A DNA stretch of 63,002 bases, filler included, from Globobulimina sp. (Eukaryota), in NCBI GenBank assembly GCA_003354225.1. It is 37 parts of 37 records of this genome, joined end to end, with 100 filler letters (N's around TTAATTAATTAA, not from the genome) between each part and the next. Parts side by side here need not be neighbours in the genome. Positions count along the whole stretch, not along the records: positions 32,417 to 34,021 come from PIVH01014206.1; 36 more parts are not named here. One strand, 5' to 3'. The notes under the pieces were generated by a model. It was given only the letters and a program-made list of their open reading frames with translations. It was not told where the DNA came from and ran no database searches. Positions 15,729 through 45,578 of this stretch are shown here, in pieces; within the stretch, counting starts at the first letter, position 1; every line of letters begins with the position of its first letter. The translations under genes were made by a program, and so were the position numbers.

Positions 15729-16329
15729 TCAGATTTCTTGCATATTTTCTGAGAGCCAATTTAGTATTTCAGCTATTCCGATATTTTGAGTTGCGACACA
15801 TTCAAATACTTTATATTTGCATTTTAATTTCGTTAGTTCGAGCTTTTGAGATAGTTTATCAATTTGTAATGCATCTGCTAAATCTTGCTTATTTGCTACA
15901 ACTGCCATTATTGAATATTTCAATTCTATCTCATGCATTAAATAATGTATTTCGTCTTTCACCAGTTCTAATCGTCTGGTATCTGCTGCATCGACAACAA
16001 AAATGAGTCCTTGTGTTCCTGCGTAGTACTGTCGCCATAATGGCCGCAATTTGTCCTGGCCGCCCACATCCCACACACTAAAATGCATGTTATCCTTTAT
16101 TAGCGACTCCACTGTGAATCCAATCGTAGGGACCGTAGCTTTCTTTTTTCCAGACAGAAATTGATGCAAAATTGCTGAGTATTTAATAATTTCTAAACAT
16201 GTATACATCAACACATTACCGTATTTTTTAACTGGTTTTCCCCGCTGAATCCAGACCCAATAAAAGTATTCTAAATTCTTTTCGTGAATTAAAGAATTTA
16301 CCTCTTATTTTTGTCAAGAAACTTCCCAT
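15729..16329 (-). CDS. ARF-family small GTPase, intron 16175-16232
   Basis: MG myristoylation start, GLDSAGKT, PTIGF, WDVGGQ, ANKQD. Confidence 0.95.
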
Positions 16330-18769: not shown

Positions 18770-20132
18770 CCACTATTTCGCGTTTCAATGTGGCTGACCA
18801 ATATATATATACGCCACTACCCGACGCACCGCCGGATGTATCACATTCATGTGTCACTAATAAATGCTCACTGAATGGTCCATCATATGGACAATATTGA
18901 TACCATTTTGTACAATCTGCTTTATCCGCAGGATGACTAATAATATTAAACGAGTGTGGTGGCGCTAAACTATCATCATAACCAACATCAAAATAACCGC
19001 CTACAGACGGATCACTTGATAATTGAATCCATGCAATATCCCAATCCCATGGTTCTGTACTCTGCCACGCGGTAAATACTACAGCCGTCGACCAATCATA
19101 ACCACCCGATGAAGGACACCCAGATACTGCATTTTTATAGAATTTCCAACCCGAATACCACGCACCACCACCATACACACAATGTGCCGCTGTAATGGCC
19201 CAACGACTAAATATTATACGCATATTCGCATATCATCACAATGAATATATGATACTTAACGGCGATATCATAGTGGCAGTACATCGATATGTACCACCGG
19301 TTGGTTTATCAAAATTTAAATACAATACACCGGAATATGGAAAACTTGTACTTGATACTTGATTACGATCATCAGATCCAATAACGTCTAATCTACGGCG
19401 TTCTACATCATGTTCAACATCCGGTGGACCATCGGGCTTATTACTGTGAGTCGGCCTGTTTTTACAAAAGAAATCTAATTCGTCCGGATCCAATTCCTCA
19501 TCATATTCAACACCACAGTCATCGCCAGTTATTACCTTTCCTTCTTGCATACAATCTTCATATCTATCATGGCCTGGCGGGTCTTGCGCAGCTTTGGGTA
19601 ATGTAAATACGCCGTTTTGCGCCGAGATACCTCGAAATCTTCTTTTTCGGCCTCGTTTGCCCGCGGCAGCGCGTTCATTTGCAGGCGGATCACAATCCCA
19701 ATCACAATATTCGTCATAATCACCACCACAGGATTCGTCATTTAATTGTCGACAATTTAATCCCTTTGGTAAATCTTTTTGAAATAAGCCATCTTTAATA
19801 CGGCAACATCTTCGCGCGGCGCATTCGTCTTCGTTGGGTCTTCTTGCTCTCTCGCCAGGAGCAGCTGCACCGAAATTATTTGCTTCATAAGGAGGAGGTT
19901 GGTATGGTTGGGCACCTCCGGCTGGATAAGGATATGCACCACCATAGGAACCAATGCTCGATGCGATTTGTTGGACGTAACCACCAGCAATAAGGCCCAA
20001 TAATAAACATACAGTGGCCACACTGACTATTTTTAATTTATTATATTTATTTGATGAGTCATTATACCCATAACCATATAACCTTGGTTTTAATCCTTGC
20101 GATTCACAATCTGTCATCTCTTGATCTGACAT
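18770..20132 (-). CDS. Membrane-anchored trypsin-like serine protease (glutamyl endopeptidase/Mpr-like, S1B); intron 19207-19260; 3' truncated
   Basis: VIGSDDR, CTATMISP|RWAITAAHC, DIAWIQL, CDTSGGASGSGVY catalytic triad; N-terminal TM and Cys-rich stalk. Confidence 0.88.
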
Positions 20133-32416: not shown

Positions 32417-34021
32417 TTTCAAAAGATTAAAAGTTGGTTTGAATTCCCTCTCATTAGTATAGAATGTCAGGAACGCTTTCTTATCTTTTTCTTTTACTTC
32501 CACATAGTCAGCAGGCTCAGGCCAAACTGAATTGTAGTTAAACATATCTTTATCAGAAGCCCAATGAAACGGGAAAAACTACAAAAAAGCTATGGCTTTT
32601 CTGCAGCATTTGTGTCTCTGTTCTTGACATACCTTTTTTTCTACAGAAAGACCCCACATTTGTGGTAAATTTCGCAAAGCAGTCCGAAACCAATTGTATG
32701 TATCCAAACAAATACAATTTCTACCTGCTCTGAATCGTAAAACACGTAAATCTCTAGTTATAATATCTTCGGGTTTGTGCCCTATAATCGAAAAAAGGCG
32801 TTTGGTGCTTTCAATAAAAGTACAAAGTAAATACCAGCATGAAGCAGTTCTTGCATAAAGAACAAAAAATCATAGCCACCGCCAAAATGGCTGTAGATAT
32901 AAGAATTTGCATTTGCTACAGTAAAGAAAGCCCATCTGACAAAATCCTTAACCGAATCTTCTCCTGCAAAGTAGTGTTCCCTGAAAAACACATTATATGT
33001 TTTTGCATCATTGGTTTTTCTATACCTTTTACCACAACATGCGGCAACAATTTGACTCCATTCCGTGAGACAAATATCACAAACTCTAATACAATAAACT
33101 AGAATAGGTATATGAATATTCGAAATTTTGTCAATGCGGGATTCTATGTCAGCAAACAGGTAACTAAATAGAGACAAAACGGAAATACAAATTTATTTTT
33201 TCTTGCAGTATGTACATTTGTTTTGTTCTCCTTTTCTTTCTTTGCGCTTTTCGTTGCACAAAACATAAATGGTCTTCTCGCGGAACAAGGTAGAGACATG
33301 TTTTACAAAATTTATAGCCACAATAATGCCAATTAAGTTTTGACCTTGCCATCGTTTTCCCTATAGACATGTTTTTAAAGATCTTTTGCATTATCTATTT
33401 CGCTTACCACAACTCAAACAACGCGCCTCAACATTGCAGCTGAAATTTGAAATATGGACATCAAAGCAGTAGGCATTTTTAAACCAGCGATTGCACCTAC
33501 AAAGCAAAGCAATAGTGTCTATCAAAAATAAAGTTTAAAAGTGACGCAGACTCTTTGCAATATTTTGTTCTTGCTGTGTAATTAGAGTAGCGCTGTAGGC
33601 AACCTTCCGTGTGGCATATATGACATATTTGTTTCTCTTGTGAACATTTATGATTTTTTCGTTTTGCGACAGTCAAGCATTTACCACAAAATCGATGGGG
33701 CGAAAATGCTAGTTTTGGATTAGAAACAAAGTAACCTAAAAGCAAGACAGGAATGGTTCCATAATTATTGAGAAGAAAAAACATACAATGGTCATGGCTT
33801 ATCAATAAACGAACTATTTGTTTTTCGTTCTGATGTGGTGTTGTCCCATTGAAAATAGTTTTAGTTTGTTTTAAGTCTGCCATATCTAATGAGTGAACTA
33901 GCAAAGAATATTGAAATTTTGATGTTAACCATTTCTGAATAGCATTAAAAATTTCATCCGTTTTTTCCAGGGCGCATCCATAGGAGCGTTTTGTTGACTT
34001 ATAAATCTGTTTGACATGCTG
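32417..34021 (-). CDS. Polinton/Maverick-type protein-primed DNA polymerase B (N-terminal Cys/His region and 3'-5' exonuclease), 7 introns, truncated at both ends
   Basis: Spliced frame gives HYCGYKFCKTC...DHLCFVQ, exoI YLFADIES, exoII SHFGGGYDFLF, CLDTYNWFRTALRNLPQMWGL, EKKFFPFHW. Confidence 0.88.
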
Positions 34022-37531: not shown

Positions 37532-38898
37532 GTTAGTTTCTTTATTTGTTGCAACGGCGTTATCCATCCATTAGAATACGGTGGATTGTGTTCGCTGTAA
37601 TCACCAATGTAACATTGTATATTATCGATACATGGCCCAACTAAACCAATTGTTATATTCGTATTTAATGTGAGTGGTAATATATTCCTTCTATTTTCCA
37701 ACAATACAATACTTCCAACAGCCATTTCATAGTTGCTTCCAATATGTTTATTGTACGTTTCATTCACTGTTAATTTCTCAAACACATTAATTGGCGCATC
37801 CATTAAACCCAATTTAAACCAGGCTTTTAAAACTCGTTTAACAGCTCTTTCTAAATAAAATTCAGGCAATGTTTCATTCAAAACACCATGGATCACAATT
37901 ACCATTCCAATCATTACCAGCCTCAATAAAATTTCTGGTAAATTTTTGCCTGAATAAATCTGTGGTGTTGCACCGCAATCTGAACATATAAATCCATCCC
38001 ATTTCCATTCTTCCCTTGCAATATTTTGCAATAATTCCTCATTCCCACATGCTGGGATTCCATTAATTTCGTTGTAACTGCACATAAATGATGCAACGCC
38101 TTGACAGTTGACACAAGATAAAATTTGCAAAATATAAAATACAAAAATATATACATTACCTGCATCAGCACACGATTTAAACGCTGGTTGGAAGGTTAAA
38201 TACCAATCATTATAAGCTACAATGGCATCAAATGAAGCTCTGTTTTGTGGAATGTTATCGGGTCCACTATGAACATCCAAATGTTTGCATGTTGCAGCTA
38301 TTTGATAATAATCTGTGGCATTAATATTAAATTGCATTTCATGTACAACATGTTTTACATATTCTGCAGTCAAAAATGGATCCTCACCATACGATTCTTG
38401 ACATCTTCCCCATCGCGGATCTCTGCATATATTTACATTCGGTCCCCAACACACAAGACCTTGGCCATGGCCATCATCGTATAATGGATTGTTAGCTGCT
38501 TCGTTATATCCTGCACGCACTTCATCAGAGGTTGCTCTCCCAAGATATTGGAAAAACTGTCGGTTAAATGACTGTGCCAAAGTCACAGCTTGCGGAAATT
38601 GTGTGGTTGGATGCGTATTTCGAGATGGTTGGTCTTTCCATGTTGCGCCGTGAATACAGCCTTGATTTACCTGTAATGGCGGTATTGCTAATCTTAACAC
38701 ACCGCCTTGGTTCGAATTTGTTAAATTATTTTTTTCAGCCAATGTCAACCGTGGATATAAATCATTTATTCGTTCTGGAATTGATAAGGATGGATTGCAA
38801 TATGGATACGTATTGAATGGGCTATCTTGACATGACGATAAATATTGACACAATGCAACAGTTGCCAGCAATATTACAAACCAAAAAGACTTCGACAT
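37532..38898 (-). CDS. Glycoside hydrolase family 3 beta-xylosidase-like; intron 38100-38159; 3' truncated
   Basis: TQFPQ, WGPNVNICRDPRWGRCQESYGEDP, KH, MCSYN, SDCGA nucleophile. Confidence 0.93.
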
Positions 38899-44687: not shown

Positions 44688-45578
44688 CTAGAGCCAAGCT
44701 GCAATATCTTTGTTAAATGCATCCGCTTGTTCAAGCATCACCCAATGTTCTGCATTCTTATATTGTTTATACACACAATCTTCCCGTTCCATCAATACTT
44801 TTTTCCATTTTTTTGTGTGCCATGGCTGTAAAATCCAGTTTCCCGCAGCAAAAAATGTTGGACAATTTGGGACAGTCGTTCTCAACACCTCCGGTTTACA
44901 CACTTTAAGATAATATAAATATAAATACAAATAATTCATCCCAACATGTATTGTTTTTTTGCCACTACGTTTCTCTTCCTCCGCTGCTGGAACCTCAACA
45001 TATTTGGTAAAGCCTCTCATCAACCAATCGCCAAAAAAAGTGGGTAATAAGAAACAAAATACATTAAACAATTGATAGGCCACCATCGCAATAAATGCTA
45101 CGTTTTCATTTGGTACCGCATCACCAACATCAATGATAACTGCTTTACTCACCAAATGTCCATCATGTTTCATAATTAATTGTCCAATGATGCTGCCCCA
45201 ATCATGCACCATCAAAATAACTCCTTCTTTTTGCCATTTTGGATATTTGCTTTGCAAAATATGTTCAATTTGATTTGCAATCGCTTTGGAAACATTTTGT
45301 GGTGGATAGCCCCACGGATTTTGAATATTATGTTTATCATAATTGGGCAGTCTGATATTTATGCATAAATGTTGACGTTGGAAATATTCAATTTGTTTTT
45401 TCCACATTGAACTCGTGTCTGGCCAGCCATGAATAAAAACAATTGGTTTTCCTTTGGCATTGCCGGTGATGGAATAACCAATGACTGGGAGTGCTGGATA
45501 CCGCAGTTTATGGATAAAAAATGATGCAAGTAATCCAAATATGATTGCTGCGATACACAAAAGAATAAATGTAAGCAT
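44688..45578 (-). CDS. Epoxide hydrolase-like alpha/beta hydrolase with N-terminal TM
   Basis: FIHGWPD, VHDWGS nucleophile, AEHWVMLEQ. Confidence 0.9.
   Translation of the reverse strand: MLTFILLCIAAIIFGLLASFFIHKLRYPALPVIGYSITGNAKGKPIVFIHGWPDTSSMWKKQIEYFQRQHLCINIRLPNYDKHNIQNPWGYPPQNVSKAIANQIEHILQSKYPKWQKEGVILMVHDWGSIIGQLIMKHDGHLVSKAVIIDVGDAVPNENVAFIAMVAYQLFNVFCFLLPTFFGDWLMRGFTKYVEVPAAEEEKRSGKKTIHVGMNYLYLYLYYLKVCKPEVLRTTVPNCPTFFAAGNWILQPWHTKKWKKVLMEREDCVYKQYKNAEHWVMLEQADAFNKDIAAWL

Follow-up and report, generated by a model that had tools for sequence, protein, structure and literature searches.

Polinton/Maverick polymerase genes are normally uninterrupted, so a candidate gene of this kind that carries seven introns raises two questions: whether the introns are real, and what kind of element, in which organism, would carry such a gene. 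In the published accounts of vertebrate, nematode and protist elements, the core genes are described as uninterrupted (PMC8097293; 10.1101/2022.07.12.499685; PMC10120064), and the methods text of a large protist survey considers prokaryotic gene finders suitable because Polinton-like elements "do not contain introns" (PMC10120064). An uninterrupted core gene is a usual Polinton property rather than a formal criterion, and the gene described here, with its seven introns, departs from it. The gene was noticed in a window, i.e., the whole stretch of DNA that was analysed (63,002 nt, Globobulimina sp., assembly GCA_003354225.1), which comprises 37 contigs of about 1.6 kb each with N spacers between them. 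It spans one entire contig on the minus strand (Table 1).

A spliced reading frame spans the contig

The original prediction held that the removal of seven GT-AG introns of 45–55 nt yields a single stop-free frame across the contig, and both parts of this claim were confirmed. The ends are GT and AG in all seven introns. Their excision leaves 1248 nt, or 416 codons, with no stop in frame 0 and with both ends open. The two other frames of the spliced sequence contain 18 and 33 stops, and each frame of the unspliced minus strand contains 18–32. Introns 1 and 5 contain no stops and have lengths divisible by three, so the frame alone demands only five of the seven introns.

We compared the strand with 200 first-order Markov imitations of it. 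GT-AG introns of 40–60 nt were unable to span 187 of these, the remaining 13 needed at least 12 such introns, and none (0/200) was spanned using seven or fewer. As a test, the frame is weak, because 0–7 such introns also suffice to span 10 of the 72 strands that the other 36 contigs provide; some of the intron paths spanning those contigs (e.g., that of contig 1) are probably spurious.

Table 1. Features of the polymerase gene fragment, in window positions
Feature	Positions	Strand	Remarks
Whole contig, internal pPolB fragment	32417..34021	-	End of N-terminal domain, Cys/His zinc-finger-like region, exonuclease domain until just before Exo III
Exon 1, 235 nt, codons 1-78	33787..34021	-	Homologous to C-terminal half of the family's N-terminal domain; conserved H78
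Intron 1, 51 nt, phase 1, GTATGT...TTTTAG	33736..33786	-	In frame, stop-free; basis, splice signals and no insert in P0006 only
Exon 2, 184 nt	33552..33735	-	Cys/His region, first part
Intron 2, 55 nt, phase 2, GTCTGC...TTGTAG	33497..33551	-	Weak donor
Exon 3, 89 nt	33408..33496	-	C2H2-like finger (CxxC...H); zf-C2H2_jaz E 0.092, weak
Intron 3, 47 nt, phase 1, GTAAGC...CTATAG	33361..33407	-	
Exon 4, 145 nt	33216..33360	-	Final Cys/His modules
Intron 4, 52 nt, phase 2, GTACAT...ATTTAG	33164..33215	-	Sole solution at that slot
Exon 5, 138 nt	33026..33163	-	Contains Exo I
Intron 5, 45 nt, phase 2, GTATAG...TTTCAG	32981..33025	-	In frame, stop-free; P0006 and P0004 without insert
Exon 6, 146 nt	32835..32980	-	Contains Exo II
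Intron 6, 53 nt, phase 1, GTATTT...TTATAG	32782..32834	-	
Exon 7, 149 nt	32633..32781	-	
Intron 7, 54 nt, phase 0, GTATGT...TTGTAG	32579..32632	-	Similarity of P0001 and X1 copies ends at border
Exon 8, 162 nt	32417..32578	-	Leaves contig ~8 residues ahead of the family's Exo III motif
Cys/His-rich region, residues 95-202, 16 Cys and 6 His	33263..33688	-	Spans introns 2 and 3
Exo I motif ADIES, residues 222-226 (D223, E225)	33139..33153	-	
Exo II motif HFGGGYDF, residues 295-302 (D301)	32866..32889	-	
LDTYNWF...LRNLPQMWGL...KFFPFHW block	32561..32707	-	Spans intron 7; family consensus DS..F....L...F.L..KKGFFP

Homology at the intron positions

As far as sequence comparison can judge, it is homology, and not the frame, that gives the decisive support for the seven introns. 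P0006 (1079 aa), the nearest intronless relative, and 17 other relatives are collinear with the spliced product. Lengths agree with P0006 at junctions 1, 2, 3, 5 and 6, and differ by 1–2 residues at junctions 4 and 7 or immediately ahead of them. Matches to the spliced product were found at 28 of 57 retrieved loci; at 17 of these a single match extends over all seven junctions, in one uninterrupted frame.

Individual borders were examined against relatives and against diverged copies from the sequencing run X1, described below. At the site of intron 1, some more distant relatives have an insert of 7–17 aa. For intron 2, an alternative of 49 nt was rejected, as it would disrupt a CxxC pair conserved in 17/17 aligned relatives. 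A diverged X1 copy matches positions 33550–33663, and its similarity ends at the 3' border of exon 2; at exon 5, the match of a diverged X1 copy is confined to 33023–33147. P0001, P0003 and the X1 copy lose similarity upstream of the intron 5 border, which was counted as support for that intron. At the position of intron 6, P0001 has an unrelated stretch of 19 residues, which would correspond, in our reading, to a 57-nt intron retained in frame.

With their GT...AG ends, and with a frame that upon their removal is restored and collinear with intronless homologues, the introns can be assigned provisionally to the U2-type spliceosomal class. The +3 bases of donors 1–7 are A, C, A, A, A, A and A, and the acceptor is TAG in six of the seven. 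When searched with blastn-short against the whole window, the introns returned only matches to themselves and matches of 11–17 nt (E ≥ 0.03). An introner origin was rejected, as the seven introns resemble neither each other nor the other 36 contigs in the 63 kb searched.

Evidence for a Polinton-type polymerase

The motifs and the Cys/His-rich region that had been read from the contig were all located in the spliced product, with LDTYNWF at residues 338–344, LRNLPQMWGL at 348–357 and KFFPFHW at 362–368. The spliced model aligned with P0006 in one block of 382 residues (166.8 bits; residues 32–413 against 404–788 of P0006), and P0006 itself matches the Pfam family DNA_pol_B_2 (PF03175) with 2.8e-24. 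The exon 5–6 piece alone, searched against 1.84 billion proteins, retrieved P0004 (6.6e-7) and P0006 (9.1e-5). The profile used for the metagenome scan was built from four full-length proteins. We scanned 20 ORFs in the flanks of seven related loci: rve or Pox_A32 scored above threshold in four (L003, L004, L015 and L021), and the flank of L009 had a sub-threshold match. The relatives adjoin rve-chromo integrases and A32-type packaging ATPases, and are therefore Polinton/Maverick elements. The proposed pPolB identity was thus borne out: the comparisons support the gene as a probable protein-primed family-B polymerase of the Polinton/Maverick kind, the link to DNA_pol_B_2 being transitive via P0006.

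When six single-exon or ORF pieces were compared directly with Pfam, no polymerase family was matched; the Pfam model begins near Exo II, and the exons are short. A word-indexed protein search with the exon 5–6 piece against longer proteins gave no match. In the IMG/VR viral contigs, P0006 gave only a zinc-finger match, and the family alignment gave 169 pattern matches with no relative among them. A weak lead came from the Protein Atlas, where the polymerase piece fell to a cluster in which 32% of the members carry DNA_pol_B_2 (score 0.87). The family profile matched phi29 DNA polymerase with 4.6e-5 and, weakly, VSR endonuclease (E about 0.01).

The relatives carry Exo III, Pol A (DxxSLYP), Pol B (KxxxNSxYG), Pol C (YxDTDS), KxY, and the TPR1 and TPR2 inserts. 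Pfam found no domain ahead of the zinc modules in the N-terminal 400–500 residues of eight relatives; our impression is that this region holds a putative OTU/papain-like Cys...His domain. The 1605-nt contig contains polymerase sequence only, with no terminal repeat. The integrase, ATPase, protease and capsid families, which the original prediction proposed to look for, were absent from 39 long ORFs examined on the remaining 36 contigs.

Conservation and divergence of the protein

The protein keeps 35 of 52 strongly conserved columns, including 22/22 Cys/His residues and the acidic residues of Exo I and Exo II. In the Exo I D-x-E motif, D223 and E225 occupy columns that are invariant in 18/18 relatives. 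In the Exo II motif, N-x(2-3)-F/Y-D, D301 is likewise kept (18/18 relatives), and the Asn of 17/18 relatives is Phe, as it is in P0001 and P0003. The 17 of 52 conserved columns that are changed include this Asn and, in the exonuclease domain, several that hold Gly or Phe. Where their sequences extend, P0001 and P0003 have the same replacements (HFGGGY in both; LDTYNWF and QMWGL in P0001). In the tree, the polymerase gene sits on the longest end branch, 2.32 compared with a median of 1.16. The changed columns and the long branch may reflect a change of function just as well as a mobile lineage.

Diverged copies of the gene

Run X1, with 1.7 million contigs, the longest of 98 kb, looks like a mixed sample. 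It contained 16 matching contig pieces, eight of them less than 90% identical; no matching pieces were found in runs X2 and X3. Among the eight matches listed, three diverged pieces match within exons and depart near exon borders. At one place, three contigs differ from the window sequence, giving at least four versions there when the window's own is counted. The identical pieces have a low depth of 2.2–5.6. P0001 is 76–80% identical in exons 6 and 7, and unrelated between and beyond them. Of the 34 differences listed, 24 fall at codon position 3 (p = 1e-5), and 23 are synonymous while 11 are not. Several copies thus appear to be kept under purifying selection. Some of the diverged X1 copies could be orthologous genes of a related second species in the sample.

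Host assignment

An ARF-like housekeeping gene on another contig of the window shares 98% identity with a Globobulimina turgida protein, and the reference transcriptome contains 98% and 89% versions of the ARF-like protein. The polymerase contig has a GC content of 0.348 and a trinucleotide distance of 0.056, both within the range of the other 36 contigs (distance 0.020–0.068), and in codon usage it comes 10th among 20 contigs (r = 0.867). Host introns elsewhere in the window are 54–60 nt long, similar in size to those of the polymerase gene. The suggestion that the contig came from a different organism found no support in these typical values, and the contig looks like part of the genome of a Globobulimina-like foraminifer. 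The suggestion had been drawn from the donors: there is no T at +3 in the seven donors, and GTT donors are real in the host (2/3 checked), but against the 8 of 19 donors first counted in the other contigs the difference gives a Fisher p of 0.062. In each of three host genes checked, one intron was seen, compared with seven in the 1248 coding nt of the polymerase gene. A host hydrolase, used as a Protein Atlas query, fell into bacterial clusters only.

Possible origins of the gene

We favour, with a probability of roughly 0.45, an endogenous, long-resident Polinton polymerase lineage that depends on host splicing in a Globobulimina-like foraminifer, and that forms a small family with shared exon borders and seven host-sized introns. 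In such a lineage, RNA polymerase II would transcribe the gene within the nucleus, the host spliceosome would excise all seven introns, and the product would be a polymerase with intact N-terminal Cys/His zinc modules and intact 3'-5' exonuclease catalytic residues. Since Polintons are mobilised as DNA, the daughters of a copy that has gained introns would inherit them, and the shared exon structure would therefore be best explained by a long-resident endogenous lineage that now needs host splicing. Counted against this explanation are the 17/52 changed columns, the longest branch, the higher intron density, the lack of GTT donors, the absence of other Polinton genes from the contig and from the 39 long ORFs, the chance that some X1 copies are orthologues of a second species, and a frame that does not require introns 1 and 5. 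A tentative extension is that a Polinton lineage remains mobile in Foraminifera, and that host-type introns densely split its core replication gene, and perhaps every gene it has. Because the contig is only 1.6 kb long, a mobile Polinton and a domesticated gene family are inseparable here. Domestication would mean that the host captured a pPolB gene, which gained introns, was duplicated, lost mobility and took on a host role using the zinc modules, perhaps with an altered exonuclease. We consider this somewhat less likely, since at least four versions at one X1 place and the low identity of half of the 16 pieces represent a multi-copy spread more usual for a transposon family, and since the retention of the catalytic acids of Exo I and Exo II and of all zinc ligands is expected of a working element polymerase. 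It would nevertheless fit the dense introns (7 in 1248 nt), the host-like codon usage and GC (0.35, compared with 0.37–0.51 in the 17 junction-spanning loci and 0.30–0.59 in all 57), the purifying selection between copies, the long branch, and the lineage-specific replacements at near-invariant exonuclease positions, which are common to P0001 and P0003 where these are covered. Precedents are described for the bacterial-origin NirK genes of Globobulimina, with 2–3 canonical introns (PMC6783311), and for the host genes Gin-1 and Gin-2, derived from Ginger1 transposases, with 6–8 introns (PMC2836005).

The remaining explanations place the contig in another genome or deny that the gene works. If its source was a different eukaryote present in the sample, such as prey, a symbiont or a small animal, with intron-bearing Polintons or their derivatives, and it was binned by chance, then the missing +3 T (0/7, compared with GTT in host genes), an intron density exceeding that of the host genes checked, and the mixed appearance of X1 would be accounted for; the first feature-based Atlas match, a mostly eukaryotic cluster in which nematodes are commonest (score 0.90), is a lead only. 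The nematode-type acceptor consensus is TTTCAG. Six of the seven acceptors are TAG, unlike this consensus, introns of 45–55 nt are near the host's 54–60 nt, and within the 37 contigs this one does not stand out in GC, trinucleotide profile or codon usage, which makes a foreign source improbable. Least credible is a decaying Polinton fragment in which frame-breaking insertions mimic introns. Insertions in decayed vertebrate Mavericks are reported to have been called 'introns' by gene-prediction software (PMC8097293), and two of the seven proposed introns are unnecessary for the frame. Decay would hardly produce inserts that are all GT-AG and 45–55 nt long, between exons that join without stops or change of length relative to the relatives; it is also opposed by the Markov imitations, none of which could be spanned by seven or fewer such introns, by the concentration of copy differences at third codon positions, and by the recurrence of the same borders in diverged copies.

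Significance of a proposed intron-bearing lineage

With seven introns across 1.25 kb of coding sequence, and several copies apparently under purifying selection, the gene suggests that the intronless assumption can fail. Intron-bearing Polinton lineages would be missed, or would resemble debris, in surveys using prokaryotic gene finders. Within the literature searched, judged by titles and abstracts, we found no paper on Polinton-type elements in Foraminifera, a group whose nuclear genomes are barely known, and within that literature this gene would be the first pointer to such elements there. If the lineage is mobile, its replication would be tied to the nucleus, as its own polymerase could not be made without the host spliceosome, and it would be the small-element counterpart of intron-rich mirusviruses. 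If it is domesticated, it would be a rare case of a host retaining a protein-primed polymerase.

Comparison with known systems

The closest comparison is with the pPolB2 class, which carries a VSR-type endonuclease insert and is described from mollusc and marine-nematode Polintons (Jeong et al., bioRxiv 10.1101/2023.08.22.554363). The gene resembles it in the order of N-terminal extension, Exo I, Exo II and DS..F/KKGFFP block, in relatives that adjoin rve-chromo integrase and A32 ATPase genes, and in the weak VSR match of the family profile. It differs in its seven introns, in the Exo II replacement of Asn by Phe, and in 16 further changed conserved positions. This comparison covers the part on the contig, and the VSR insert and the polymerase motif region would fall beyond the contig end. 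Intron-bearing nematode Polintons had been put forward as a precedent; this does not agree with Widen et al. (10.1101/2022.07.12.499685), in whose account nematode core genes are intronless and Maverick introns are confined to cargo genes.

Maverick-Polinton-like proviruses of dinoflagellates are reported to harbour introners (Gozashti et al., PMC11957031). They are similar in being Polinton-like with spliceosomal-type introns gained in a host genome, but their introns are copies of transposon-like introner families, whereas those described here are mutually dissimilar and much denser. Mirusviruses are described as intron-rich and predicted to replicate in protist nuclei, with one terminase gene that contains 20 introns and a genome-wide density that reaches 0.62 introns/kb for a single isolate (PMC12768974). 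They share canonical GT-AG introns in core genes, read as dependence on the nuclear spliceosome, but belong to an unrelated phylum with free virus genomes, whereas the present case is a genomic contig with seven introns in 1.6 kb of one gene. Globobulimina NirK (Woehle et al., PMC6783311) comes from the same genus as the closest ARF-like match and is likewise presented as a foreign gene that gained introns after arrival; it differs in being a bacterial metabolic gene, with fewer introns and no mobile element.

Phi29 DNA polymerase (PDB 1XHX, 2EX3), the only polymerase of solved structure matched by the family profile, shares the catalytic acids of Exo I and Exo II. It is about 15% identical, has neither the Cys/His region nor the long N-terminal extension, and is encoded by an intronless phage gene. 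In a fold model of P0006, a relative and not the window protein, which is of modest quality (mean pLDDT 61.6 for the model), the top nine PDB matches were all phi29 polymerase (1.8e-5 to 1.3e-4).

Intron structure of the polymerase gene

The finding occupies one whole contig (32417-34021) of the 37 in the 63,002-nt window, each 1604-1607 nt long and set apart by N spacers. On its minus strand, all seven introns of the original prediction have GT at the 5' end and AG at the 3' end; introns 1 to 7 measure 51, 55, 47, 52, 45, 53 and 54 nt and have phases 1, 2, 1, 2, 2, 1 and 0. Their removal leaves 1248 nt (416 codons) with no stop in frame 0 and with 18 and 33 stops in the two other frames; unspliced, the strand holds 18-32 stops per frame. 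The spliced product carries every polymerase motif that had been quoted (residues 222-226, 295-302, 338-344, 348-357 and 362-368), and the Cys/His-rich region was borne out by 16 Cys and 6 His within residues 95-202. The observation of a seven-intron gene is confirmed. The introns are not copies of one another or of other sequence within the window, in which no Rfam family reached its gathering score.

The reading frame by itself needs five introns only, since introns 1 and 5 keep the frame and contain no stop. We simulated 200 Markov versions of the target strand and allowed GT-AG introns of 40-60 nt; 187 of these imitations could not be spanned, and the other 13 needed at least 12 introns. 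Among the other 36 contigs, 10 of 72 strands were spannable with 0-7 such "introns", part of these paths looking spurious, and a cruder link search met chance GT-AG links everywhere. Because the frame test is not strong and chance paths occur in other contigs, the intron case rests on homology.

Identity and relatives of the polymerase

A Pfam scan of single exons gave no polymerase family, and a word-indexed protein search gave no match. When the 109-aa read-through of exon 5, intron 5 and exon 6 was compared exhaustively by HMMER with 1.84 billion proteins, seven matches resulted, including P0001 (6.7e-20), P0003, P0004 (6.6e-7), P0006 (9.1e-5) and P0007; P0002 and P0005, also among the seven, are repeat proteins and were discarded as noise. 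The spliced model aligned with residues 404-788 of P0006, the nearest intronless relative (1079 aa), in a single block (166.8 bits); against P0004 the model scored 95.9 bits. P0006 matches Pfam DNA_pol_B_2 at 2.8e-24, and P0004 and P0007 lie slightly under the cut-off. The full-length relatives P0010-P0012 (1352-1434 aa) reach 8e-43 to 5e-52, and their consensus carries Exo I to III, Pol A to C, and KxY. Phi29 DNA polymerase was matched in the PDB by a profile of four full-length proteins (alignment A2; 4.6e-5) and formed the nine best PDB matches of the AlphaFold model of P0006 (mean pLDDT 61.6; exonuclease part 80-90).

The metagenome scan returned 56 loci, and the spliced model matches 28 of 57 loci compared. 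At 17 of these 28 loci a single tblastn match runs through every one of the seven junction positions; the genes are therefore uninterrupted there. Scanning 20 ORFs beside the polymerase at seven loci revealed that the flanking genes of the relatives are the Polinton/Maverick gene set (see table). The reverse transcriptase with a weak GIY-YIG match at locus L002 would represent a Penelope-like architecture. An IMG/VR search found no relative, and no integrase, ATPase or capsid family turned up among 39 long ORFs from the 36 remaining contigs. On sequence comparison, the P0006 alignment, the match of P0006 to DNA_pol_B_2 and the Polinton genes beside relatives confirm the predicted identification of the target gene as a Polinton-type pPolB.

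Features located in the window and beside the polymerase of metagenome relatives
Feature	Location	Strand	Description
Host intron	16175-16232	-	58 nt, GTTAAA...CAG, ARF-like gene; fixed by transcript-derived P0013, 98% identical
Host intron	19207-19260	-	54 nt, GTTAAG...TAG; joins two ORFs of trypsin-like gene
Host intron	38100-38159	-	60 nt, GTAATG...AAG; in frame, stop-free, inside long GH3 ORF
Diverged X1 piece	32481-32585		Exon 8; unlike window near border 32578
Diverged X1 piece	33023-33147		Exon 5; unlike window near border 33026
Diverged X1 piece	33550-33663		Exon 2; unlike window near border 33552
L002 flank	L002:5511-7142		Reverse transcriptase with weak GIY-YIG match, directly downstream of intact 1364-aa pPolB ORF (metagenome contig)
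L003 flank			Pox_A32 ATPase and rve-chromo integrase
L004 flank			rve-chromo integrase
L009 flank			A32 match, sub-threshold
L015 flank			A32 ATPase
L019 flank			dUTPase
L021 flank			rve integrase

When the spliced model was aligned with 18 relatives, its length equalled that of P0006 at junctions 1, 2, 3, 5 and 6; at junction 4, which lies in a length-variable region, the difference was one residue, and immediately before junction 7 it was one or two. A 49-nt alternative for intron 2 would disrupt a CxxC pair kept in 17/17 aligned relatives. Intron 1 is the least secure of the seven, since the frame does without it and four distant relatives carry 7-17-residue inserts there. Diverged copies lend the structure independent support. 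P0001, a 153-aa protein encoded on a 1618-nt contig, shares 76-80% identity with exons 6 and 7 but is unrelated to the target between these exons and past the end of exon 7; its 19 extra residues are read as a putative 57-nt in-frame intron at the intron 6 position.

The target keeps 35 of the 52 columns with at least 85% agreement among relatives. Kept are 22/22 Cys/His of the zinc region, D223 and E225 of Exo I and D301 of Exo II; changed are the Exo II Asn (to Phe), G323D, K325R, S340T, F343W, F355W, G362K, F368W, G379S, E397A, W401F and six N-terminal columns, four of which are gaps because the contig begins inside the domain. Where covered, replacements are common to the target and P0001/P0003 (HFGGGY in both; LDTYNWF and QMWGL in P0001). 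A maximum-likelihood tree of 19 sequences and 332 columns joined the target with P0004 (85/84) and then, weakly, with P0006 (72/84); the target is the longest end branch (2.32 vs. a median of 1.16), and the program warns that such a long-branch join may be false.

Before the zinc modules, members of the polymerase family share a conserved N-terminal domain, with a Cys motif (consensus N.D..CLARAI in P0010-P0012 and L003-L021) and a near-invariant His, H78 of the target, in exon 1 (33787-34021). Pfam assigned no family to this domain in eight relatives; a putative papain/OTU-like protease or terminal-protein role is our guess. Between Exo III and Pol A (positions 789-851), the A2 profile weakly matched a VSR endonuclease (E ~0.01), and the corresponding part of the target gene lies beyond the contig end. 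Molluscs and a marine nematode are reported to have a pPolB2 class that bears VSR, with which the match in relatives agrees.

Host genes and diverged copies

The ARF-like gene at 15732-16148, on another contig, best matches two Globobulimina turgida entries in EukProt (98% and 89% identity); its identity is 71-72% with Bolivina argentea and 61% with Rosalina. From these matches, the window looks to come from a protist, namely a rotaliid foraminifer similar to Globobulimina. The three checked host introns are similar in size to the target's seven; for the trypsin-like and GH3 introns, placement presumes characteristic family motifs. The GH3 intron illustrates that long ORFs in the assembly can hide introns. 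Most eukaryotes rarely use GTT donors, which may be characteristic of the host foraminifer. A complete 296-aa alpha/beta hydrolase ORF (44691-45578, minus strand), whose nearest protein Atlas clusters listed are all bacterial (scores 0.96-0.97), may have been acquired from bacteria or may sit on a bacterial contig that entered the bin.

Sequencing run X1 contains 70% of the target contig's sampled words. Sixteen of its contig pieces matched the target, six at ≥99% identity and eight at <90%; the details cover eight of the 16, three of them diverged. Codon position 3 of the proposed frame holds 24 of the 34 differences listed (binomial p = 1e-5), and, judged singly, 23 are synonymous and 11 nonsynonymous. 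Together with similarity confined to exons, these excesses show that the exons truly code for protein and are under purifying selection, and that the introns are free to diverge. Three X1 contigs are unlike the window at one place, and with the window's own form the sample has at least four versions there. Part of these versions could be a second related species, not paralogues. One reference transcriptome of the host genus holds the 98% (P0013) and 89% (P0014) versions of the ARF-like protein; Globobulimina samples may thus hold two related genomes or recent paralogues, which affects how the diverged copies are read.

Origin of the intron-bearing gene

The original prediction had raised a different organism as a possibility, from the lack of T at donor position +3. 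The host does have GTT donors, and the target has none (0/7). With the counts first used, the contrast has p = 0.062, and we treat the missing GTT donors as an oddity, not as evidence of a foreign contig. The target contig (GC 0.348) fits the rest of the window in trinucleotide profile (distance 0.056, inside the 0.020-0.068 range of the other contigs) and in codon usage (r = 0.867 against the pooled other contigs, rank 10/20), against the claim of a separate source. A contig from another organism is improbable. A dead copy with chance "introns" is very unlikely.

We give the highest probability, about 0.45, to an endogenous Polinton lineage that would have resided for long in a foraminiferal nuclear genome and whose polymerase gene would have gained host-type introns; splicing, expression and the element's other genes are predicted. 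Since the element moves as DNA, daughter copies would receive the introns. A domesticated polymerase gene family is somewhat less likely: it accounts for the intron density and for the changes in the exonuclease about as well as the resident Polinton lineage, whereas the several diverged copies fit it less well.

In the literature, incompletely covered, no paper was found on Polintons in Foraminifera or on a Polinton polymerase dense in introns. Intact vertebrate Mavericks are described as having ORFs without introns, in agreement, according to that paper, with Kapitonov and Jurka 2006 (PMC8097293); the core genes of nematode Mavericks are called intronless, with introns in cargo genes only (10.1101/2022.07.12.499685); and endogenous viruses are without introns according to a survey across protists (PMC10120064). 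Introners can occur in dinoflagellate Maverick-Polinton-like proviruses (PMC11957031), the few intron-bearing viral-region transcripts of Cymbomonas are taken as host genes or incipient domestication (PMC10675990), and the many spliceosomal introns of mirusviruses are taken to signal nuclear replication (PMC12768974). In Globobulimina itself, NirK genes of bacterial origin are described with 2-3 canonical introns (PMC6783311).
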